Source: a phage. Taken from it: DNA of 64,000 bases. Both the position numbers and the translations under genes were made by a program. The notes under the pieces are model-generated. The model saw nothing but the letters and a program-made list of their open reading frames with translations. It was not told the DNA's origin and did no database searches. Shown piece after piece: positions 7,253 through 63,681 of the stretch; position 1 is the first letter of the stretch, and every line of letters starts with the position of its first letter. The DNA lies in the NCBI GenBank assembly GCA_033580375.1, contig GCA_033580375.1_4527.1, one strand, 5' to 3'.

Positions 7253-10200
7253 ATGGCTACTTTAAAACAAATACAATTTAAAAGAAGCAAAACCGCAGGC
7301 GCACGTCCTGCCGCTTCAGTATTAGCCGAAGGTGAATTGGCTATAAACTTAAAAGACCGTGTACTTTTTACCAAAGATGACCAAGGAAATATTATTGATC
7401 TTGGTTTTGCTAAAGGCGGTAGTATTGACGGGAATGTTATTCACACAGGTAATTATAACCAAACTGGCGATTATACTTTAAATGGCACCTTCACTCAGAC
7501 AGGTAATTTTAATTTAACTGGTATTGCTCGAGTAACTCGTGATGTTATTGCCGCCGGGCAGATTATGACTGAAGGCGGAGAACTTATTACAAAAAGTTCA
7601 GGTACAGCACATGTTCGTTTTTTCGATAACAATAGTCGCGAACGTGGAATCATTTATGCCCCGGCTAATGATGGTTTAACTACACAAGTACTTAATATCA
7701 GGGTTCAAGACTACGCCGCTGGTGATGAAAGCACCTATGCATTTTCGGGCAGTGGACTATTTACTTCACCTGAAGTATCAGCATGGAAATCTATTTCGTC
7801 TCCACAAATTCTGACCGATAAAGTTATTACAAATGGGAAGAAGACGGGCGATTATGATATCTATTCATTATCAAATAACACTCCATTGGCAGAAAGCGAA
7901 ACGGCTATTAACCACCTCCGTGTTATGCGAAATGCTGTAGGAGCAGGTATTTTCCACGAAGTTAATGTTAATGACGGAATAACCTGGTATTCCGGAGATG
8001 GCTTAGACACTTATCTTTGGTCGTTTACCTGGTCCGGTGGATTGAAAGCCGGTCATTCTATCGCTGTAGGTCTTCCAGGCGGTCCAAAAGGATATTCTGA
8101 ATTAGGAACGGCCTCAATTGTTCTTGGTGATAATGATACCGGATTTAAGTGGCATCAGGATGGATATTTCCATACAGTAAACAACGGAACAAAAACTTTC
8201 ATTTACGGTCCTGCGGAAACACAAAGCCTTAGAAAAATGGTTATGGGTTATTCTCCAGATGGGCTTCTTATGACAACGCCACCGACAGAAAACTATGCTT
8301 TGGCCACTGTTGTTACTTACCATGATAATAACGCATACGGCGACGGTCAGACTCTTTTAGGATATTATCAAGGCGGTAATTATCATCACTATTTCCGCGG
8401 TAAAGGTACTACAAACATTAATACTCACGGCGGTTTGTTAGTTACTCCAGGTAATATTGATGTTATTGGCGGTTCTGTTAATATAGATGGTAGAAATAAT
8501 TCTTCTACACTAATGTTTAGAGGCAACACAACAGGATACAGCTCGGTTGATAATATGGATATTAAAGTTTGGGGTAATACGTTTGTTGATCCAAGCGGAG
8601 GTATCCGTAAAAACATTATGGAAATTTCTGATGCAACTAGCTGGATGAGCTATATTCAAAGACTTACTACTGGCGAAGTAGAAATGAACGTTAATGGTTC
8701 ATTTGAATCATCTGGTGTTACTGCTGGAGATAGAGGAGTTCACACAACAGGTGAAATTTCATCTGGAGCAGTGAATGCTCTTCGCATTTGGAATGCAGAT
8801 TATGGAGCCATTTTTAGACGTTCAGAAGGAAGTCTTCATATTATTCCAACTGCTTACGGTGAAGGTAAACACGGTGATATCGGTCCACTTCGCCCGTTTA
8901 GTATGGCTTTAGATACCGGTAAAGTTACTATTCCGGATTTACAATCAAGTTACAATACGTTCGCTGCTAACGGTTATATTAAATTTGTTGGTCATGGAGC
9001 GGGTGCCGGTGGTTATGACATTCAATATTCTCAAGCGGCTCCTATTTTCCAGGAAATCGATGATGATGCTGTAAGCAAATATTATCCTATTGTTAAACAG
9101 AAGTTTTTAAACGGTAAATGCGTTTGGTCTTTAGGTACTGAAATTAATTCGGGTACATTCGTTATTCATCATCTGAAAGAAGATGGTTCACAAGGCCATA
9201 CGTCTCGTTTTAATCAAGACGGTACTGTTAACTTCCCAGATAACGTTTCTGTCGGCGGCGGTGAAGCTACTATTGCTCGTAATGGTAACATCTGGTCTGA
9301 TATCTGGAAAACGTTTACTTCAGCAGGCGACGTAACTAATATTCGCGATGCTATTGCTACTCGCGTTGCCAAAGAAGGCGACACGATGACCGGCACTCTT
9401 TGGATTAATAAAGATGCCGCTGGAATAGTTCTTAATCCTCCTTTGACCAGTGATTCATCATTTATTCGTTCTGATACGGCCGGGGCCAATAATTGGTATA
9501 TTGGTAAAGGCGGTGCCGACAATGGTCTAGGTTTTTACAGTTACATTACACAAGGCGGTGTATACATAACAAATACCGGTGAAATATCGCTTTCTCCTCA
9601 AGGACAAGGAACATTTAATTTTAATAGAGACCGCCTTTATATAAATGCTAGTCAATGGGTTGCACATAAATCTGGCGCTTGGGGCGACCAATGGGGCTTA
9701 GAAGCTCCTGTATTTGTGGATTTTGGCTACGTCGGTAATGATAGTTATTATCCTATTATTAAAGGAAAATCTGTTATTACGAATGAAGGATACGTGTCAG
9801 GCGTTGATTTTGGTATGCGCCGTACCCCTAATATGTGGGCACAAGGTATTATCCGTGTAGGCAACCAGGAAAACGGTTCAGACCCACAAGCCATCTATGA
9901 ATTCCACAGTAACGGTACTTTTTATGCCCCTAGCCTACTTAAGAGCAACAGAGTATCAGCAGGTGGCGGTGACCCCGTATGGGCCGGGCCATGTATTGTT
10001 CTTGGCGATAATGACACAGGTCTAGTTTGGGAAGCAGATGGTATTTTCAACGCATATGCAAACGGACAAGGTGTATTCAGTTTTAGAGCCGGTCTCGCAC
10101 AAACATTTGGTAACGTAGCGTTAAACGTTAACGCAGGTATGTATGTTCGTGATAACATTGATGTTAACGACGTTTATATCCGTTCTGATATTCGCTGTAA

Positions 10201-43269: not shown

Positions 43270-43818
43270 TTAACGAGCCCATTTGATGATTTCTGTAATC
43301 AAATCATTACGTTCGCTTGCATTAAATCCTATAACTTTGTTAGCACCATCATGATTAAGTAATTGATACGTTTGGATTTTGTTATGAATTGCAAACTCTT
43401 CAAAATGTGAAATGACTGTATTAAAACTGAGTGAAGACAAAGTAATAAGATCGTCTTCAAAACTTTCAGTCATTTCGTTACGTGTTAAAATAATTGTGAA
43501 CACGTCATGGTTTTGGCAAAGACGAACATAATCCTGCTCATAAACATCAAGAACCGAGTCCGCATCTTGTCGAATACGTCCATAAACCCAGTTACTAATA
43601 TATCCACGGTCTAACAGATAAATCTTAGTAGGGTCTAAATAATTCAACATCGTTTCGAAACAACCAACTTCATTTCGAGACTTAACATCGAAACGTCCAT
43701 CAACTGTTCGTTTAGGGAAATCAATCTTTACATATCTTTCACTAATTTCCATTATGACATTAATGAAAGTTGTTTTGCCGGCATTATCTGGGCCATCTAC
43801 TAAAATAATTTTAGCCAT
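43270..43818 (-). CDS. P-loop kinase-like protein (thymidylate/dNMP-kinase fold); function unknown
   Basis: 182 aa; Walker A ILVDGPDNAGKTT near N-terminus, DRGY motif (LLDRGYISNWVYG) like the DRY/DRX motif of nucleoside monophosphate kinases. Occupies the slot of T4 beta-gt. Confidence 0.5.
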   Translation of the reverse strand: MAKIILVDGPDNAGKTTFINVIMEISERYVKIDFPKRTVDGRFDVKSRNEVGCFETMLNYLDPTKIYLLDRGYISNWVYGRIRQDADSVLDVYEQDYVRLCQNHDVFTIILTRNEMTESFEDDLITLSSLSFNTVISHFEEFAIHNKIQTYQLLNHDGANKVIGFNASERNDLITEIIKWAR

Positions 43819-43819
43819 T

Positions 43820-44716
43820 TTATTCCTCGATTACGACATCTTCGTATTTAGGTATATTATACGGCGAAGAAATTAAAGCATTAAAGTAGATGAACTCACC
43901 AAGACCTGGATGGAATACTTCTTCAGGATTTTCGAAATATTGAATCTTCGGACGTCCTTTAAGAATTTGATAGTACTCAGTTTTAGTTGGTTTAAAAATT
44001 CGAATCAGCGCTTCTTCAGGATACTTATTTCTGTCGAAGCTATTATTTGGATCGGTTATATAAAGTGGTTGTCCTAATTGAATTGCACATTCAACCACTT
44101 GTTCAAAATGATAACACGGATCACTAATTCGAAATGGATGAAAAATACCATCTACATGAATAGGAGCCAAATCACCTACAAGACGCTGCATGATGGAAGG
44201 ACGTATAACTTTCTGCGTTACGATAATCTTATTATCTGCGCCAGCGTTAACCAGCACTTCTTTTTGACGTTCATTCAACACAGTAGTTTGAAGTGAACGA
44301 TTAACCGACAACATGTCGGTTTTTAAGAATTCGTCAATATAAAAACGTGGTTTATTAGGGTCTGCAGTGATATTGAAATTGAATTCTACATCAAAAGCGC
44401 CGTCATATCCAGTGATATCTGTGATTAGAAAATCACAATCATAATAAGCAATTAATGAATCAACAACAAATTCATTTTCAGACCAGAAATATTTACGAGT
44501 GTTATACGCGTTATCTTTATACCATAATGGAACAAACTTAAATTCTGGGAAAAGACGTTCACATTCTTTAATATCAGATGCATTACGTGGATATGTAATC
44601 ACATCACCCGGATTAGCACGGTGCAAATGAAGTTGGAAGTTGCCATCCTTAAGGATAGCATACTGTCCAGTTTCATAAGACCGCATACTCAAGATTGGTA
44701 CGCGGAAAATAGCCAT
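43820..44716 (-). CDS. hypothetical protein (298 aa) in beta-gt position; no motif recognised
   Basis: Track ORF tightly packed (2-nt gap to next gene, 1-nt overlap with gene 42 homolog). Confidence 0.4.
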   Translation of the reverse strand: MAIFRVPILSMRSYETGQYAILKDGNFQLHLHRANPGDVITYPRNASDIKECERLFPEFKFVPLWYKDNAYNTRKYFWSENEFVVDSLIAYYDCDFLITDITGYDGAFDVEFNFNITADPNKPRFYIDEFLKTDMLSVNRSLQTTVLNERQKEVLVNAGADNKIIVTQKVIRPSIMQRLVGDLAPIHVDGIFHPFRISDPCYHFEQVVECAIQLGQPLYITDPNNSFDRNKYPEEALIRIFKPTKTEYYQILKGRPKIQYFENPEEVFHPGLGEFIYFNALISSPYNIPKYEDVVIEE

Positions 44717-45432
44717 TAGTCAAGGAATCCTTTAACATAATCAAAATCACGTTCAAACACATGGGCACTTACCATGGTATGAGTATAATCACCAACTTCT
44801 ACACCGCATTCGTTAGCGATATAATGAAGTAATTTTCCTTGGAGATAAAAATCCAACTGCATAACAACAGCACAGTTCTGAGAACGCATATGACAGTGGG
44901 TATAAAGCTTACCATCACGAATATAATAAGTCACTGAGTCAGTACATGGATATTCAAGTGTTTCATCTGAATCAAGCAAAGCCTGATCAGAACTTTCTAG
45001 AATTTGGAACACAACTCTTCGAGAGTTAGGTTTTTCTTTAAGTTCTTTTAGAAGAGCTGGTAATTGAGCCGCAATGCGAGGACCATAGAAAGTGTTGAAG
45101 TTTGCAGGCAAAGCATCTGATTTTGGTTTAGAAATAAATTTAGCGACATTAGGATATGCCTTAAACGCTTCTTCTGCATCAGTACCACCGGAAATCATAA
45201 ACTTCCAGAAGTCTTCGGCATATTCATAAGATATGCGATTAATACGTGGGTCGGTCATTTTGAATGATGATGGAGTGTCAACAACTACTGTCATAGACCC
45301 AATTTCATTACAACGTCCAATACGAGAATCAGTTACGAATTCTGGGTTTTCTAAAATTTCACGATTGACTGCTTTAAATGCGGTTTGAAAATCTGCGGCT
45401 TTGATATATTTCATTGTGTTATGTTTTCCCAT
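44716..45432 (-). CDS. 42: dCMP hydroxymethylase (thymidylate-synthase superfamily), gene 42 homolog
   Basis: 238 aa; catalytic region YPCTDSVTYYIRDGKL...HMRSQN...MQLDFY aligns by eye with T4 gp42 FMCTNTVQYLIRDKKI...NMRSND...FRNDY (Cys148 nucleophile, Asp179 equivalent retained). Confidence 0.7.
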   Translation of the reverse strand: MGKHNTMKYIKAADFQTAFKAVNREILENPEFVTDSRIGRCNEIGSMTVVVDTPSSFKMTDPRINRISYEYAEDFWKFMISGGTDAEEAFKAYPNVAKFISKPKSDALPANFNTFYGPRIAAQLPALLKELKEKPNSRRVVFQILESSDQALLDSDETLEYPCTDSVTYYIRDGKLYTHCHMRSQNCAVVMQLDFYLQGKLLHYIANECGVEVGDYTHTMVSAHVFERDFDYVKGFLD

Positions 45433-45557
45433 GTTTACCTCAATACAATTTATTATATACTCAATTCGTAAAGCTTATTTGAATTTCTTGGCAATGTTGA
45501 TATAACGTAAAGCTTCAGCATCGATACTTCCAAGAACACTATGAAGAAATGCATCAG

Positions 45558-45713
45558 CTTAGTATTCTAATTGAACAGGTTCTTTAATCACTTTAGCCGC
45601 TTTGGTTTCAAACAGGCCCATAAGGGCCTTTTTAAGAATTTGTTCGTTAGTGTTCAGTTTCATAGTCAAAATCTCTTCATTAAGTTTATAATTAAAAGCT
45701 TTTCTAGAAATCA
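45558..45713 (-). CDS. small ORF (~51 aa) translationally coupled (ATGA) to the U32 gene; coordinates approximate
   Basis: Hand translation MISRKAFNYKLNEEILTMKLNTNEQILKKALMGLFETKAAKVIKEPVQLEY; start overlaps U32 stop. Confidence 0.25.
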
Positions 45714-46871
45714 TTCCGGGTACCTCAAAGCGTCATCAGAGTTAGTTATATCAATAATAGATATGGAGTTTTCTGCTAACCCGTTTTTAGATAATTGACG
45801 TTTGTAATATCTTTCACAATATGTACACGTTGACCCACAGATTTCATTAGCACAATCGAAATCCGGATGTCTGAACCACCTTTTTTCTAAAAAGCCATCT
45901 AACAAAGAGGTTTCAATATTTACTGTATGTGAAAACTCAGTCTCATTTTCAAGAGTGAAAATAGTCTCTAAAGGCTTCCACAGTTCTAACAAATTACCTT
46001 CAAACTTTTCAGAAGCGTATGCTTCAAGAACTTTCAAAATGTAGTCTGTGCTACCTGTACGTCCTGAAACTTTGAATTGAGTGATACCAATATCATTATA
46101 AAGTTTCAAATCTTGAGGACGAACAAAACGAGTTCTCAGCCAGTTAAATGGGTCTGTATCACGAGCTTTAATGCAGTGTTGCATTGGATATCCATTTAAG
46201 GATTTAGCATCATCAGCGGTAACATCAGTACTATGGAAAATATAGCAAGAGTCACGATAACTACAATGTGTTGTATACCCTTTACCAGCATTAGAACAGA
46301 ACTCATTTACAAGAACTTCAAATATTATATTGTTCTTATTGCAAAACTCTGCTGCACGCTTCAGGAAAGAAACTGAACGGTTCTTATGAATTCCACAGCA
46401 GACCTTTTTGATATTATATTGGTCATGCAAGTATTTGATTTGAGTTACGGCATCAACATGTAGAATTGTTGAAACTTCAATCTCAATATCTTTATTGACT
46501 TCACGAACAATTTCCATAACAACAGGGTTAGCGATAGTAATACGCCATACACCTATTGACCAAAGATACTGAACATAATCCTGAATAGCTTTCTTCTTCC
46601 ACTCAACTAGTTCTCTTTTTGAACCAGGATTTATCGTGTTGAGTGTATAGTTAAAGCAAATACCTAATTCGTTACAACGTTTAACATAGTCTTCTAACAT
46701 TTTTTTGTCAACGTCAGGAAGCCTAAAATCAGGTCTGGCTGCTACAAAAGCCATTTCTCTTGTAGAGCCATATACTTCGTTTATCAAGCTATTAGGATAA
46801 GTTTTATTGAGCTCTACGATTTTATCAAGAAGAGCTAAATCAAAATTCGTTCCGATTTTAAAAGTATTCAT
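45711..46871 (-). CDS. Peptidase-U32-family protein (RlhA/TrhP/UbiU-like putative oxygen-independent hydroxylase)
   Basis: 386 aa; N-terminal TIM-barrel signature NEVYGS...FVAARPDF...ICFNYTLNTI (cf. U32 DAVY.G...NAR.F...YVTLNTL), central ITIANPVVMEIVRE...EIEVS and Cys cluster EFCSNAGKGYTTHCS, plus C-terminal CANEICGSTCTYC. Confidence 0.6.
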   Translation of the reverse strand: MNTFKIGTNFDLALLDKIVELNKTYPNSLINEVYGSTREMAFVAARPDFRLPDVDKKMLEDYVKRCNELGICFNYTLNTINPGSKRELVEWKKKAIQDYVQYLWSIGVWRITIANPVVMEIVREVNKDIEIEVSTILHVDAVTQIKYLHDQYNIKKVCCGIHKNRSVSFLKRAAEFCNKNNIIFEVLVNEFCSNAGKGYTTHCSYRDSCYIFHSTDVTADDAKSLNGYPMQHCIKARDTDPFNWLRTRFVRPQDLKLYNDIGITQFKVSGRTGSTDYILKVLEAYASEKFEGNLLELWKPLETIFTLENETEFSHTVNIETSLLDGFLEKRWFRHPDFDCANEICGSTCTYCERYYKRQLSKNGLAENSISIIDITNSDDALRYPE

Positions 46872-46929
46872 TTTTTTGCATCTCGCGTTAATTGATGCGA
46901 TGGGTTTTTTGCAGGTCTTACTTAAATTA

Positions 46930-47331
46930 TTATAGATTCGGTTTATACGATTTAAATGTTTCGAATTCGCCTTTATTCATAAGAGCTTTGAATTCGTCAG
47001 GACGCATAGCTTTGTCGTCGATAATCCAATCATATACTGGTTTATGTGTTAGCAAATTATGGTACTTCAAACCAATGTTTTCCAAGTTCTGAATCAGACT
47101 TGGGAGAATGTCAATTGCTATACGACCAGGACCTACTGACTTCATACCACGAGCAGTGTAAAGCGTTATGGTATGCCCTGCATCATACAGGGCATTAATG
47201 GCGGTCACCATTTCGACGTCTGGTTTGAAGTTCGCGTAATCACGATTGTTATTCCATTCCGTGATGCAATCATCGACATCAAAACAAAGATTAAGCATGT
47301 TTTCTACACGGCGCATTAGATTCGTTCCCAT
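46930..47331 (-). CDS. HAD-superfamily phosphatase (KdsC-like sugar-phosphate phosphatase)
   Basis: 133 aa; HAD motif I FDVDDCIT, motif II LYTAR, motif IV YDWIIDD. Confidence 0.6.
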   Translation of the reverse strand: MGTNLMRRVENMLNLCFDVDDCITEWNNNRDYANFKPDVEMVTAINALYDAGHTITLYTARGMKSVGPGRIAIDILPSLIQNLENIGLKYHNLLTHKPVYDWIIDDKAMRPDEFKALMNKGEFETFKSYKPNL

Positions 47332-49001
47332 TGATGAGTGATATCGCCACCGATTGGACGATAGGAAACACCAGTTTCTTTATCAGTTAGTACCCATTTA
47401 CCAGGATTTTTTGTAATCAGAGTAGCCGTTACAGGTTCTGCTACGTCATAACTAATAGAGCCGTCTTGAAGTACACGACCCATGTTACGTAATTGCTTAG
47501 TCAGAAGTTCCATACCTTTATAATATGCGGCTACCGCTTTAAGTGGATTATTCTTGAAATAACCACCTAATGCAATCCAGATAATCGCCACTGCCAAATG
47601 ATGATACTCGTTAAACGAACTCATCTTTCCATATTTGTAAACTAATGGATTGATGTTAATAGTCACATTACAAGTTGTTTCGTCAATAGTAAACTGTCCC
47701 CAGGTCGGATTAGCATTGAATTCATCATAACCTGAAACAGCATAAAGCACTTTAGCTTCATCGTACAATTTTGGCCCGTAAATCTTGGTTTCACCAAAAT
47801 ATCCACGAGGGTCGATAAACTTGACTTCGCCGTTATCAGTAATCATAGTATTACTGAAGTTCGGGTCACCGTGAATAACAGAGTACTGTCCCTGAGAACG
47901 GTTATGATAACGAATAAGGTGTTCTAAAGCTTGTTTCAACATTGGCTTCAGACGTCCAATCTTAGTGTAGTTCACATGTGTGATTTTACCAAATGAATCA
48001 ATCAATGGTTGAATGCTTTCACAACGATCAATAACTTTCGTATAGAATTCTTTAGTGAAATCACGACGAACAGTTTCAGGACTTACAAAATAAATGTCTG
48101 TGCTGAATTTCAGTGCATCTAAAATTGCATCAACAATTTGTGGACGAGCAAGACTTGATTTGGATTTAATATATTCAAATGCTGGCTTACCTTTAATGCG
48201 TTCCATTTCAAAGTTATTTTCATTAACAGAAACTAACTGAGGAACTGAATCTGATTTTACTTTCAAATACCATGAAATCTCATCTTTTTGAAGAGCTCGT
48301 CCCTGTTCTGTTAATGCGAATTTAGTTACAGTTTCTTCACCAATTTCAACTGCATTAAAACTACGATTAAGTTCACGAACTTCATGAGCCTTTTCAAGTT
48401 TAGGCATATCACCTAAATCAATTAGATTCATAAGCTCTGATTTATTGAATGCACTGCCGTAAAGGAATTCTACAAAATCACGTCCTTTACAGTATTCGTG
48501 AATTTCCTCGTCAGTAGAACCCATGTAGAATTCCCAGTCTTTGAACTGATAAATTCCTACAACATTACCGCCTGTTGAACCTACGTTAGTGATATTTTCA
48601 CCATCGAAATTATATCGACATTCATCACCCTTAACATAGATTGCGTTAACATTCCAAGACCATGAACCAAAATCTGGAATAATATCACACCAGTTAACAA
48701 CTACGTTATGGCCGTCTAAATCTTTATGTAATTTAGCAAGAGCATAAGCAGAACCATACGCTTCATCAACTGTACGAATAGTCACATTGAACCCTTCTTG
48801 CTCACAATAAGCTCGAACAGTTTCAGCAAATTTTGAATGAACTACTACAATAATTTCATCTGCACCAAGGTCAGAATAAATTGTATACAAATTGCTCAGA
48901 ATAGTGTCTTGTTTATAGTTCACAAGAACTTTTGGAATATGGTGAGTAATTGGATATAAACGAGTTGCCAGTCCAGCACCAAGAATAACAGCTTTTTTCA
49001 T
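47316..49001 (-). CDS. Bifunctional sugar-1-phosphate nucleotidyltransferase (N-terminal) / sugar kinase (C-terminal, APH/ChoK-like)
   Basis: 561 aa; N-terminus KAVILGAGLATRLYPITHHIPKVLV matches the RmlA/GalU G-x-G-T-R-L signature; C-terminal HGDPNFSNTMITDNGEVKFIDPRGYFG resembles the catalytic loop of aminoglycoside/choline/anomeric-sugar kinases. Confidence 0.7.
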   Translation of the reverse strand: MKKAVILGAGLATRLYPITHHIPKVLVNYKQDTILSNLYTIYSDLGADEIIVVVHSKFAETVRAYCEQEGFNVTIRTVDEAYGSAYALAKLHKDLDGHNVVVNWCDIIPDFGSWSWNVNAIYVKGDECRYNFDGENITNVGSTGGNVVGIYQFKDWEFYMGSTDEEIHEYCKGRDFVEFLYGSAFNKSELMNLIDLGDMPKLEKAHEVRELNRSFNAVEIGEETVTKFALTEQGRALQKDEISWYLKVKSDSVPQLVSVNENNFEMERIKGKPAFEYIKSKSSLARPQIVDAILDALKFSTDIYFVSPETVRRDFTKEFYTKVIDRCESIQPLIDSFGKITHVNYTKIGRLKPMLKQALEHLIRYHNRSQGQYSVIHGDPNFSNTMITDNGEVKFIDPRGYFGETKIYGPKLYDEAKVLYAVSGYDEFNANPTWGQFTIDETTCNVTININPLVYKYGKMSSFNEYHHLAVAIIWIALGGYFKNNPLKAVAAYYKGMELLTKQLRNMGRVLQDGSISYDVAEPVTATLITKNPGKWVLTDKETGVSYRPIGGDITHQWERI

Positions 49002-49041: not shown

Positions 49042-49185
49042 TCTAGTTAAAGCATTCATACTTTGCTTGTAGTCCAATCATAATCCATCCAATTACAAGT
49101 GTTGGAATCATTACTGGAGCCGTTAAGCTCCAGTAGATAGTCATGACAAGCATCAATAGTAAAAGTCCTATTGTTATTGCTTTCA
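49042..49185 (-). CDS. small hydrophobic membrane peptide (~47 aa), ATGA-coupled to the SIS-domain gene; coordinates approximate
   Basis: Hand translation MKAITIGLLLLMLVMTIYWSLTAPVMIPTLVIGWIMIGLQAKYECFN. Confidence 0.3.
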
Positions 49186-49818
49186 TTGCTCGCCTCGTAA
49201 CATGGCACCTAGAGCACCGCCAGGGTGGAACTTAAGGAAATCATTAGAGGTAAATCCACGTTCAGACGAAAGGTTGATAGCAAACGTATCGATAAGCGCT
49301 AACAACAATGTAGTGGACATGGTCGGAGCTAAAGAGTTCTCGTCAACTTCTACCGCGATACCGGTACAGAACGTATAATCAAAAAGAGCTTCGTATTCTT
49401 GCGGAATGTCAGGGTTACAATGTAACAGAATCTGTTTAACCTGAGGACGAATCATACGAAGATGTTTAGCAACACCTATCATTTCTTCAGTCTTACCAGA
49501 ACGACTGATGTGAACTAATACATCATTAGGTGCAATAAATCCTGCGTCGCCATGAGAATAATGCCCAGTGTTCAAATACATGCTAGGAATACCGAGTGAA
49601 GCAAATGTCTCAGAAGCTTTAGTTGCAATATTAGCATTCTTACCAACACCTGTAATAATTACACGACTTTCATAATTACTCAGTCCAGGGCGTCGAAGAG
49701 TTTCAAGAATAGCATTATAACGAGCAGGGTTTTGACTAATTACTTTGGCCATAGCGGCCAAAGAAGAAGCTTGTTTTATGATTGCGTCAATAGCGATAGT
49801 AATAGGAGTAGTTTTCAT
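49183..49818 (-). CDS. SIS-domain sugar-phosphate isomerase (KpsF/GutQ/KdsD-like arabinose-5-phosphate isomerase, no CBS domains)
   Basis: 211 aa; SIS motifs VIITGVGKNANIATKASETFASLGIPS...HGD...DVLVHISRSGKTEEM and C-terminal HPGGALG. Confidence 0.7.
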   Translation of the reverse strand: MKTTPITIAIDAIIKQASSLAAMAKVISQNPARYNAILETLRRPGLSNYESRVIITGVGKNANIATKASETFASLGIPSMYLNTGHYSHGDAGFIAPNDVLVHISRSGKTEEMIGVAKHLRMIRPQVKQILLHCNPDIPQEYEALFDYTFCTGIAVEVDENSLAPTMSTTLLLALIDTFAINLSSERGFTSNDFLKFHPGGALGAMLRGEQ

Positions 49819-63074: not shown

Positions 63075-63380
63075 TCAATCTTCTATGATATCAGAGTCGT
63101 ATCCTAATGAAATCAAGGACTTTTTAAACTCTGCAATATTCTTTTGTTTCTTATCATTTAAAAATATGACAGGATAACGAATATTAAGTGAAGTGAATCC
63201 TGCACGTTTAGCAAGAGATACGATTAAAGGACGGTCGTATTCAATCTTACCATTATTAGTGAGGACTTTATAAAATGTATAAGGAACATTGAGCTCCTTT
63301 AAAAGTTTTGTAACAGTATAACATCCTGGACAACGTCCAACTTCTTCAGGGATGCCATAAATTTCAATCTTGTTCTTTAA
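63075..63380 (-). CDS. Glutaredoxin/NrdH-like redoxin (C-P-G-C active site); start uncertain
   Basis: C-terminal ~100 aa of track ORF 63075..63527: KIEIYGIPEEVGRCPGCYTVTKLLKELNVPYTFYKV is a thioredoxin-fold redox motif; N-terminal 50 aa of the track ORF overlap the upstream gene and are probably not translated. Confidence 0.45.
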   Translation of the reverse strand, partial: LKNKIEIYGIPEEVGRCPGCYTVTKLLKELNVPYTFYKVLTNNGKIEYDRPLIVSLAKRAGFTSLNIRYPVIFLNDKKQKNIAEFKKSLISLGYDSDIIED

Positions 63381-63681
63381 GTTCGAGTTTTGTTCCACGA
63401 GAAATAATTCCTTGGTAAGCCCAATAAGGAGGATTAACAGAATCCTCACCCGAGTTTTCTTCAGGAAAATAAACCTGGATAACGAAGCCGGATTCATCAA
63501 ATGTAAAATAAACTGTAGGCAGTTCACCTAACAATTCGGCGCGAGCATTAATTTCTTCGAGATCTCGTTCACGTCCAGCCCAAAAACTAGGATTTAGATT
63601 ACATTCGTAAAAATAATAGTCATTACCGAACATATCAAACCCATTCCAACTCTCTACCACGTACCGCTCAAAACTAATCAT
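63364..63681 (-). CDS. hypothetical protein
   Basis: 105-aa track ORF. Confidence 0.4.
   Translation of the reverse strand: MISFERYVVESWNGFDMFGNDYYFYECNLNPSFWAGRERDLEEINARAELLGELPTVYFTFDESGFVIQVYFPEENSGEDSVNPPYWAYQGIISRGTKLELKEQD

Follow-up and report, generated by a model that had tools for sequence, protein, structure and literature searches.

A U32-family protein in the arabinosyl-5-hydroxycytosine island of an RB69-type phage: a candidate oxygen-independent route to the modified base

The DNA dealt with here is a stretch of 64,000 nucleotides from a phage (NCBI GenBank assembly GCA_033580375.1, contig GCA_033580375.1_4527.1), to the whole of which we will refer as "the window". It belongs to an RB69-type Mosigvirus, with 97-98% nucleotide identity to several Escherichia and Shigella phages, and its DNA-modification island contains a gene for a U32-family protein (45711..46871, minus strand), an uninterrupted open reading frame (ORF) of 386 amino acids (aa) with an ATG start, whose product is the orthologue of RB69 gp50 (NP_861740; 99.2% identical). 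We consider it probable that this protein is an enzyme constituting a second route, O2-independent and prephenate-dependent, to the 5-hydroxycytosine (5hoC) of phage DNA. A bolder form of the proposal, which we advance only tentatively, is that it would be the first U32 hydroxylase acting on free deoxycytidine monophosphate (dCMP) with prephenate, and would be the sole source of 5hoC in non-T4-like phages lacking the hydroxylase of thymidylate synthase (TS) type; these phages would rewire the host shikimate pathway by means of chorismate mutase (CM) or of fusions between 3-deoxy-D-arabinoheptulosonate 7-phosphate synthase (DAHPS) and CM.

The chemistry of the island has been described in RB69, whose DNA carries mono- and poly-arabinosylated 5hoC and not arabinosyl-5-hydroxymethylcytosine (Lee et al., NAR 2026, PMC13326640); arabinosylated 5hoC replaces cytidine completely in that DNA (PMC13326640). 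An earlier reading of the window made from its letters alone (the sequence-only reading) had delimited the 386-aa ORF exactly. It had assigned the surrounding genes to a 5-hydroxymethylcytosine island, which has to give way to arabinosyl-5hoC (PMC13326640), and had held that no pathway step needs such an enzyme. Hydroxylation of cytosine at C5 is instead the central step of the island, because RB69 DNA carries arabinosyl-5hoC and the homologue of gp48 is a 5-hydroxy-dCMP synthase. The flanking genes had been recognized in part: a phosphatase of the HAD type does lie upstream, but the gene downstream, taken for gene 42 and a dCMP hydroxymethylase, encodes a TS homologue with 100% aa identity to RB69 gp48 (44716..45432, minus strand; Pfam Thymidylat_synt, E=2e-15). 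To convert dCMP into 5-hydroxy-dCMP, the gp48 enzyme uses molecular oxygen, as seen from the incorporation of 18O2, together with a reduced flavin that it binds loosely, and on its own it yields 5-hydroxydeoxycytidine (5hodC) in Escherichia coli grown aerobically, without gp50 (PMC13326640). Being O2-dependent, it cannot work under anoxia. On the other side of the pair, gp50 appears in the same paper only as a table entry ("sugar or heterocycle reductase", structural match 5D88); the words prephenate, chorismate, hydroxylase and peptidase are absent from its text, and its discussion cites the RlhA and TrhP papers for pyrimidine hydroxylation in RNA without connecting gp50 to them (PMC13326640). 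The U32 protein is the component of the island with its function still unassigned. No paper linking U32 to phage 5hoC was found in the literature searched, to which neither He et al. (Nat Chem Biol 2026) nor Mahler et al. (Cell Host Microbe 2025) belonged; HY126, the phage of He et al., is a Mosigvirus with the U32 region, so that He et al. may have remarked on the gene. The paper on phage Thanatos modelled TH1_057-065 and gave no function to TH1_065.

Judged by profiles and by the predicted fold, the protein is a genuine member of the U32 family, as had been proposed. Pfam Peptidase_U32 (PF01136) matches residues 94-286 with E=7.3e-11 and 42.2 bits (gathering cut-off 22.4) and is also found in 118 of 120 homologues among the matches listed (precomputed annotation), and PHROG 5757 covers the protein end to end (E=7e-267). 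The AlphaFold2 model, built from a 70-sequence alignment, has a predicted local distance difference test score (pLDDT) of 92.9 and a predicted template modeling (TM) score (pTM) of 0.91, and its strands alternate with helices as is typical of a TIM barrel. Its top Foldseek match in the PDB is 5D88 (U32 peptidase Mk0906; E=3.2e-7, TM score 0.69 normalized to the target), the remaining matches being generic TIM barrels, many of them glycosidases or aldolases, with TM scores of 0.3-0.4 and large root-mean-square deviations. Mk0906 is the only U32 crystal structure matched; it shares 11% identity with the phage protein and, as a 247-residue minimal U32, covers the barrel and not the C-terminal Cys-rich region. 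A PDB sequence search retrieved nothing at E<=1. Of the two U32 profiles that the sequence-only reading had proposed to search, Peptidase_U32 was found above its cut-off, but the U32 C-terminal domain, which only some subfamilies possess, gave no match in Pfam, PF01136 being the only family at E<=0.1. The Pfam scan also gave no match to DUF3656 or to Thymidylat_synt in the U32 protein; without a TS profile, U32 would be a non-homologous enzyme if it makes the same product as the TS-type one. The protein belongs to a separate, large subfamily whose members have ~360 aa and for which 1187 representative clusters were obtained at E<=1e-3. A minor point concerns the start of the gene: RB69 gp50 is annotated as 389 aa, and in the window (46872..46901, minus strand) an out-of-frame ATG lies 10 nt ahead of the U32 start, with an A-run between them. 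The family alignment starts at the downstream Met (MNTFK...), and we suspect that a difference in A-run length may decide the reading of the three extra N-terminal codons.

The conserved cysteine clusters noticed earlier turned out to be more strongly conserved than claimed, as ten Cys do not vary at all among 121 homologues that share 48-100% identity (C158, C177, C192, C203, C209, C233, C340, C345, C349, and C352). Candidate Fe-S ligands were mapped by alignment to E. coli UbiU, UbiV, RlhA and TrhP, the canonical [4Fe-4S] ligands being C169, C176, C193 and C232 in UbiU, 169/176/192/196 in RlhA and 170/177/193/197 in TrhP. Phage C192 falls on ligand 1 and C209 on ligand 2 of UbiU, RlhA and TrhP, separated by a 10-residue insertion that holds C203, and C233 falls on ligand 3 via a common C-x-x-A-R motif; three of the four canonical positions are thus kept, all of them invariant in the 121 homologues. 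A by-eye likeness around GYP-x-x-C had suggested UbiU C232 as the counterpart of C233, and was discarded, since the optimal alignment gives UbiU C193 and 0 of 50 family members fall on C232. A further group, C340-x4-C345-x3-C349-x2-C352, lies in a family-specific C-terminal segment, and the alignments hence suggest two candidate Fe-S sites in a single chain.

Several characterized systems bear on what such a protein might do. RlhA (YdcP) has been implicated in the 5-hydroxycytidine (ho5C) at position 2501 of E. coli 23S rRNA (ho5C2501), with genetic dependence on prephenate and on Fe-S biogenesis (PMC5727448). The phage protein resembles it in the U32 domain, in the Cys at ligand positions 1-3 and, as proposed here, in hydroxylating cytosine at C5; it differs in size (386 vs. 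653 aa), in the lack of DUF3656, whose combination with U32 is unique to RlhA (PMC5727448), in the proposed substrate (a deoxynucleotide or DNA, not a ribosomal precursor), and in having the insertion between ligands 1 and 2, no CX3C pair and a C-terminal four-Cys group of its own. For 5-hydroxyuridine (ho5U) at tRNA position 34, two non-homologous routes are described in PMC6599085 and PMC10990095, namely O2-dependent TrhO and the U32 protein TrhP, which is prephenate-dependent and O2-independent. The pair gp48/gp50 would follow the same dual logic, although its aerobic partner is a flavin-dependent TS homologue instead of a rhodanese-type TrhO, and its substrate would be DNA precursors on a stoichiometric scale instead of single tRNA positions. 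In UbiU-UbiV, the O2-independent U32 Fe-S hydroxylases of ubiquinone, labelling with 18O-shikimate identified prephenate as the donor of the oxygen (PMC10990095). The phage protein shares with UbiU the C-x-x-A-R at ligand 3 and the lack of an adjacent fourth Cys; UbiU and UbiV carry one [4Fe-4S] each, whereas in the phage protein both candidate Cys groups belong to a single chain, and UbiU and UbiV act on a lipid aromatic ring, with UbiT annotated as accessory factor, whereas the phage protein is a single polypeptide from a separate subfamily. UbiI-H-F/UbiU-V and TrhO/TrhP are both pairs of aerobic and anaerobic enzymes in E. coli, as is proposed for the phage.

Within the phage itself, the closest comparison is the TS-type synthase (RB69 gp48/DLP3 gp80, with a homologue in HY126), encoded ~280 bp away in the same operon and with the same proposed product; it has an unrelated fold, uses flavin and O2 and occurs in every T4-like phage with arabinosyl-5hoC, also where the host is a strict aerobe, whereas U32 is optional. 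T4-like phages carry the aerobic ribonucleotide reductase NrdAB. In RB69, the genes of the anaerobic enzyme, nrdD and nrdG, are annotated as well (RB69 44977..47261), so that a paired aerobic/anaerobic design already exists in the lineage; NrdAB/NrdDG are a precedent for O2-dependent and O2-independent enzymes of DNA-precursor synthesis by analogy only, their chemistry and families being others. The window ends at an NrdH-like glutaredoxin gene (63075..63527, minus strand), directly after which nrdG and nrdD follow in RB69, ~17 kb from the U32 gene.

The linkage of U32 to prephenate-forming enzymes is a further line of evidence. A type II CM gene, significant by Pfam, overlaps the U32 stop codon in Enterobacter phage Entb_45 and in Serratia phage LC53; in Kanagawavirus and Winklervirus, the stop codon of U32 and the start codon of the CM gene behind it overlap. 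By tblastn, CM is present in 54 phage records from approximately nine T4-like groups, and all 54 listed matches lie at the U32 locus; the carriers are Winkler-, Kanagawa-, Marfa-, Teguna- and Bragavirus, EcS1, Morganella and Providencia phages, Pectobacterium phage PM2 and Shewanella phage Thanatos. Even in Thanatos-1, where the cluster is rearranged (TS, glycosyltransferase [GT], kinase, U32, CM), the overlap between U32 and CM has been kept. We infer the prephenate dependence of the phage enzyme from this linkage and from the DAHPS-CM fusions that occur in unrelated phages.

Those unrelated, metagenomic phages came from a scan of viral contigs of up to 294 kb, which gave 47 U32 loci, 15 of them T4-like and 32 distant (40-55% identity); all ORFs within 10 kb of U32 were called and clustered. 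Homologues of the arabinosyltransferase of the window stand beside U32 in 23 of the 32 distant loci, those of the sugar kinase/nucleotidyltransferase in 16 and those of the arabinose-5-phosphate (A5P) isomerase in nine, and a KdsC-type HAD phosphatase lies directly upstream of U32 in 16. The latter, a protein of ~200 aa, had been considered as a kinase for modified deoxynucleoside monophosphates (dNMPs) and was rejected as such, for it has no Walker A motif, gave a negative hhalign comparison with Tmk clusters and bears the KdsC-type HAD motif DCDGILTDG. On the other hand, the cluster of TS-type hydroxylases, present in 15/15 T4-like loci, appeared in 0/32 distant loci within the same 10 kb. 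A sensitive hidden Markov model (HMM) of the TS family, run on 38 distant loci (636 kb, six frames), gave one weak match, in locus L035, which leaves 31 of the 32 distant loci with no TS-type hydroxylase found within 10 kb of U32.

Shikimate-pathway genes recur in this set. A fusion of DAHP_synth_1 and CM_2 is found next to U32 in five distant loci by clustering, two of which were checked with Pfam (L058:11079-12197 and L044:8411-9433), the other three being assigned by clustering (L047:7302-8357, L048:8332-9387, and L045:9-971); in L033, a gene for DAHPS alone (9384-10130; Pfam) overlaps the U32 stop codon. These entry enzymes of the shikimate pathway appear to be an undescribed kind of phage auxiliary metabolic gene. 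L018 stems from an unrelated phage whose polymerase is of the DnaE type, and is arranged as MazG-type dUTPase, Tmk-like kinase, GT homologue, U32 and polymerase; its GT matches that of the window by BLASTP (E=5e-10), with the common motif PI-SMRSYETG-Y. Further U32 relatives adjoin genes for dCMP deaminase, thymidylate kinase, deoxynucleoside kinase, NT5C and nucleoside deoxyribosyltransferase.

The distribution among T4-like phages may point to the conditions in which the enzyme would be of use. By tblastn, U32 is present in 222 phage records at an identity of at least 80%, the names of which all correspond to Enterobacterales, Shewanella or unnamed Mosigviruses; the TS homologue is present in 374 records, including 57 of Acinetobacter and 20 of Rhizobium phages. 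The corresponding clusters of Acinetobacter, Pseudomonas and Rhizobium phages lack U32, which was seen in no phage of a strict aerobe. Acinetobacter phage DLP1, Pseudomonas phage PspYZU05 and the E. coli Dhakavirus IME08 have the same gene order, HAD phosphatase and then TS homologue, without U32 and CM. As such U32-less clusters exist and DLP3 DNA nonetheless carries tri-arabinosyl-5hoC (PMC13326640), neither the sugar pathway nor aerobic hydroxylation requires U32. Oxygen independence of the U32 enzyme is what we infer from its absence from the Acinetobacter, Pseudomonas and Rhizobium clusters, together with its coexistence with gp48 and, in RB69, with nrdDG. Where present, the protein is well preserved: over 14 non-Mosigvirus T4-like loci, the median identity of U32 to the protein of the window is 85%, the values for other proteins being 80% (TS homologue), 71% (DNA polymerase gp43), 66.5% (gp41 helicase), 66% (GT) and 86% (UvsX). 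These identities indicate that U32 is under strong purifying selection and among the most conserved proteins at the locus. In IME08 (L011:3854-8589), the 5hoC/arabinose cluster also has no annotated A5P isomerase at the syntenic position, besides the missing U32 and CM.

In the mechanism that we propose, the U32 Fe-S enzyme would hydroxylate cytosine at C5 without molecular oxygen, the oxygen atom coming from prephenate, as proposed for RlhA, TrhP and UbiU/UbiV, and the Fe-S center or centers serving the two-electron oxidation. The substrate would most likely be dCMP, because kinases and dNMP enzymes surround the U32 relatives, or alternatively cytosine already in DNA. The product would be the same 5hoC as that made by gp48 with O2 and flavin, and would then be phosphorylated, incorporated into DNA and arabinosylated by way of the same kinase, polymerase and arabinosyltransferase; the phage would in this manner have two routes to an essential modified base, one aerobic and one anaerobic. 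Approximately one prephenate would be spent per cytosine, i.e., ~63,000 per genome, given ~63,000 G:C pairs per genome (GC 0.374), and millions per burst. Owing to this consumption, prephenate demand could explain the CM and DAHPS-CM genes borne by phages, and the Mosigvirus of the window, which has no CM gene, would rely on host PheA and TyrA.

A number of observations weigh against this proposal. CM is absent from the window phage and from all other Mosigviruses by tblastn, HMM and hhalign. The fourth ligand position of the phage protein holds no Cys, as in UbiU, so that the anticipated correspondence with the RlhA/TrhP ligands holds for C192, C209 and C233 but not for the fourth, for which the invariant C203, C158 and C177 are candidates; the ligand spacing also departs from the canonical pattern because of the 10-residue insertion. 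The label of RlhA/TrhP/UbiU-like hydroxylase given by the sequence-only reading stands insofar as a C5-pyrimidine hydroxylase is the best interpretation, but the protein is not an orthologue of any characterized subfamily: the NCBIfam UbiU model gives 18.5 bits against a cut-off of 440 bits, no RlhA or TrhP model matches, and the HMM of the phage family gives 15.5 bits with E. coli TrhP, 9.5 with RlhA, 5.9 with UbiU and -1.5 with UbiV. Direct hydroxylase activity of a U32 protein had not been reconstituted in vitro as of 2024 (PNAS; PMC10990095), for which reason the function of the family rests on genetics, and no biochemical or genetic test of this protein was found in the literature searched. 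Dhakaviruses infect E. coli and yet have no U32; IME08 (E. coli host, neither U32 nor CM) rules out that U32 and the oxygen physiology of the host correlate strictly in both directions, and because of these phages the pattern runs one way only. The absence of a TS homologue in the distant phages holds only within 10 kb of U32, and L035 has both U32 and a TS-family gene.

Among the alternatives, the one that survives best, although we find it unlikely, was the preferred explanation of the sequence-only reading: U32 would install a different, additional DNA modification, or would hydroxylate host tRNA or rRNA (ho5U, ho5C) as a takeover function, and would take no part in phage 5hoC. The characterized U32 proteins that hydroxylate pyrimidines, RlhA and TrhP, all act on RNA (PMC10990095, PMC5727448), and U32 is dispensable in air, where gp48 suffices for 5hodC in E. 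coli (PMC13326640). However, the complete replacement of cytidine by arabinosylated 5hoC in RB69 is accompanied by no second modified base noted in the consulted part of PMC13326640. Furthermore, the distant U32 genes sit with GT and sugar-activation genes and, within 10 kb, in 31 of 32 loci without a TS-type hydroxylase, and U32 relatives are found among genes of dNMP metabolism and not of RNA modification; for these reasons we rate an extra modification or a host RNA takeover below an O2-independent second route to this same 5hoC.

An enzyme of the sugar branch, as the entry "sugar or heterocycle reductase" in Table 1 of PMC13326640 implies, seems improbable to us. The BASEL record of phage AlbertHofmann does label a gene, most likely U32, as "putative enzyme involved in UDP-arabinose biosynthesis", U32 lies between the sugar-activation and the base-modification genes, and TIM barrels are common in sugar enzymes, many Foldseek matches being glycosidases or aldolases. 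Those non-U32 matches are poor, nevertheless, and UDP-arabinose synthesis is explained by He et al. with the isomerase, AfhE and AfhF alone, as cited in PMC13326640. The clusters of Acinetobacter phages, Pseudomonas phages and Dhakaviruses possess the same sugar genes without U32, with DLP3 still making arabinosyl-5hoC, and a sugar role leaves the kept linkage to CM and DAHPS-CM unexplained. That linkage also goes unexplained if U32 is a redox partner of gp48, e.g., an Fe-S flavin reductase supplying reduced flavin mononucleotide, an idea to which we lend slightly less credit still. The reduced flavin of gp48 is needed and loosely bound (PMC13326640), two candidate Fe-S sites could pass electrons and the two genes are near neighbors, but gp48 works in E. 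coli without gp50 (PMC13326640) and the 31 distant loci mentioned above have U32 with no TS homologue within 10 kb. A true peptidase or collagenase, as the family name and most database records would have it and as PrtC and HP0169 were historically described (PMC5727448), is very hard to reconcile with a gene set in a nucleotide and sugar modification operon and linked to prephenate-forming enzymes, with ten invariant Cys typical of Fe-S enzymes, and with a U32 peptidase mechanism that was never established (PMC5727448).

Were the O2-independent route to 5hoC real, it would explain how phages that depend on 5hoC-DNA can multiply in places without oxygen, the gut being one, in which an O2-requiring hydroxylase fails, and U32-less relatives such as the Dhakaviruses would be oxygen-restricted, with IME08 depending on oxygen for its DNA modification; this would bear on the choice of phages for therapy. 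Prephenate-dependent U32 hydroxylation would reach beyond RNA and quinones and would take in DNA precursors and viruses, DNA hypermodification would be endowed with separate aerobic and anaerobic biosynthetic routes, and phage CM and DAHPS-CM fusions feeding a DNA-modification enzyme would be a new auxiliary metabolism. From the practical point of view, a single-chain U32 protein acting on small, soluble dCMP would make in vitro reconstitution of U32 hydroxylation directly testable. The combination of U32 with GT and sugar-activation genes, sometimes with CM, could also serve as genomic marker for phages with glycosylated 5hoC that do not have the TS signature now used.

The remaining genes of the island are all on the minus strand. 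Downstream of the TS homologue lie DNA arabinosyltransferase 1 (43820..44716; RB69 gp46:47, PHROG 3891, PMC13326640 Table 1), here a single ORF of 298 aa, and a thymidylate-kinase-like nucleotide kinase (43270..43818; PHROG 761, 97.8% identical to RB69 gp45, PMC13326640 Table 1). Upstream of U32 lie the AfhF-like HAD phosphatase of arabinose activation (46930..47331; RB69 gp51, NCBIfam TIGR01689, E=1.5e-13; PMC13326640), the AfhE-like bifunctional sugar kinase/nucleotidyltransferase (47316..49001; RB69 gp52:53, Pfam NTP_transferase and weak kinase matches; PMC13326640), which is a single ORF of 561 aa, and the A5P isomerase (49183..49818; RB69 gp55, NCBIfam KpsF/GutQ E=9e-32 and KdsD E=4e-30). 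The arabinosyltransferase and the kinase/nucleotidyltransferase are split in RB69 as a result of sequencing errors (PMC13326640), and the intact ORFs of the window, compared with ORF046/047 and ORF052/053 of the RB69 record, agree with that explanation.

The slot that CM occupies in other genera holds in Mosigviruses, the window included, an unrelated ORF of 79 codons. Its representative in the window (45559..45714, minus strand; RB69 ORF049c homologue), whose start overlaps the U32 stop codon, is cut from 79 to 51 codons by a TAA at codon 52 (Tyr52->TAA); read-through would reach 45478, and the ORF is intact (79 aa, Tyr at codon 52) in RB69 and phiE142. It was considered as a decayed CM and rejected, given that neither it nor the intact RB69 ORF049c has a Pfam match even at E<=10, an HMM of phage CM gives <=2 bits in all six frames, and hhalign assigns a probability of 0.1%. 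The 280-bp stretch of this ORF is the most variable of the locus among Mosigviruses, with 89-98% nucleotide identity vs. ~97% in the surrounding 7 kb. Homing endonucleases lie between U32 and CM in Proteus phage PM2 (L014:4932-5615) and immediately upstream of U32 in Serratia phage LC53 (L002:5352-5990), and one splits a recombination gene in Thanatos-1 (L013:7239-7892); they are a possible vehicle for moving the U32/CM module between phages.

A few contigs merit separate mention. In L035 (5491-11089), on a 230-kb viral contig, a weak TS-family gene of 283 aa (E=0.007) lies directly upstream of a run of GT, GT, kinase/nucleotidyltransferase and U32, and this may be a non-T4-like phage with both hydroxylase types, as far as its gene content suggests. 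L004 (8001-15428), on a contig of 86 kb with dockerin and GH43 proteins, is a bacterial-looking cluster in which two U32 paralogues accompany a radical SAM/SPASM protein, NT5C, a PnuC-like transporter, a deoxynucleoside kinase, an AlaX-like protein and a nucleoside 2-deoxyribosyltransferase; it may serve an anaerobe for the modification or the salvage of nucleosides. Radical SAM/SPASM genes are found near U32 relatives in two unrelated contigs (L003:1-1454 and L004:12160-13185), and that of L003 adjoins a 402-aa protein with a weak glycosyltransferase-like (QTMAN_N) match.

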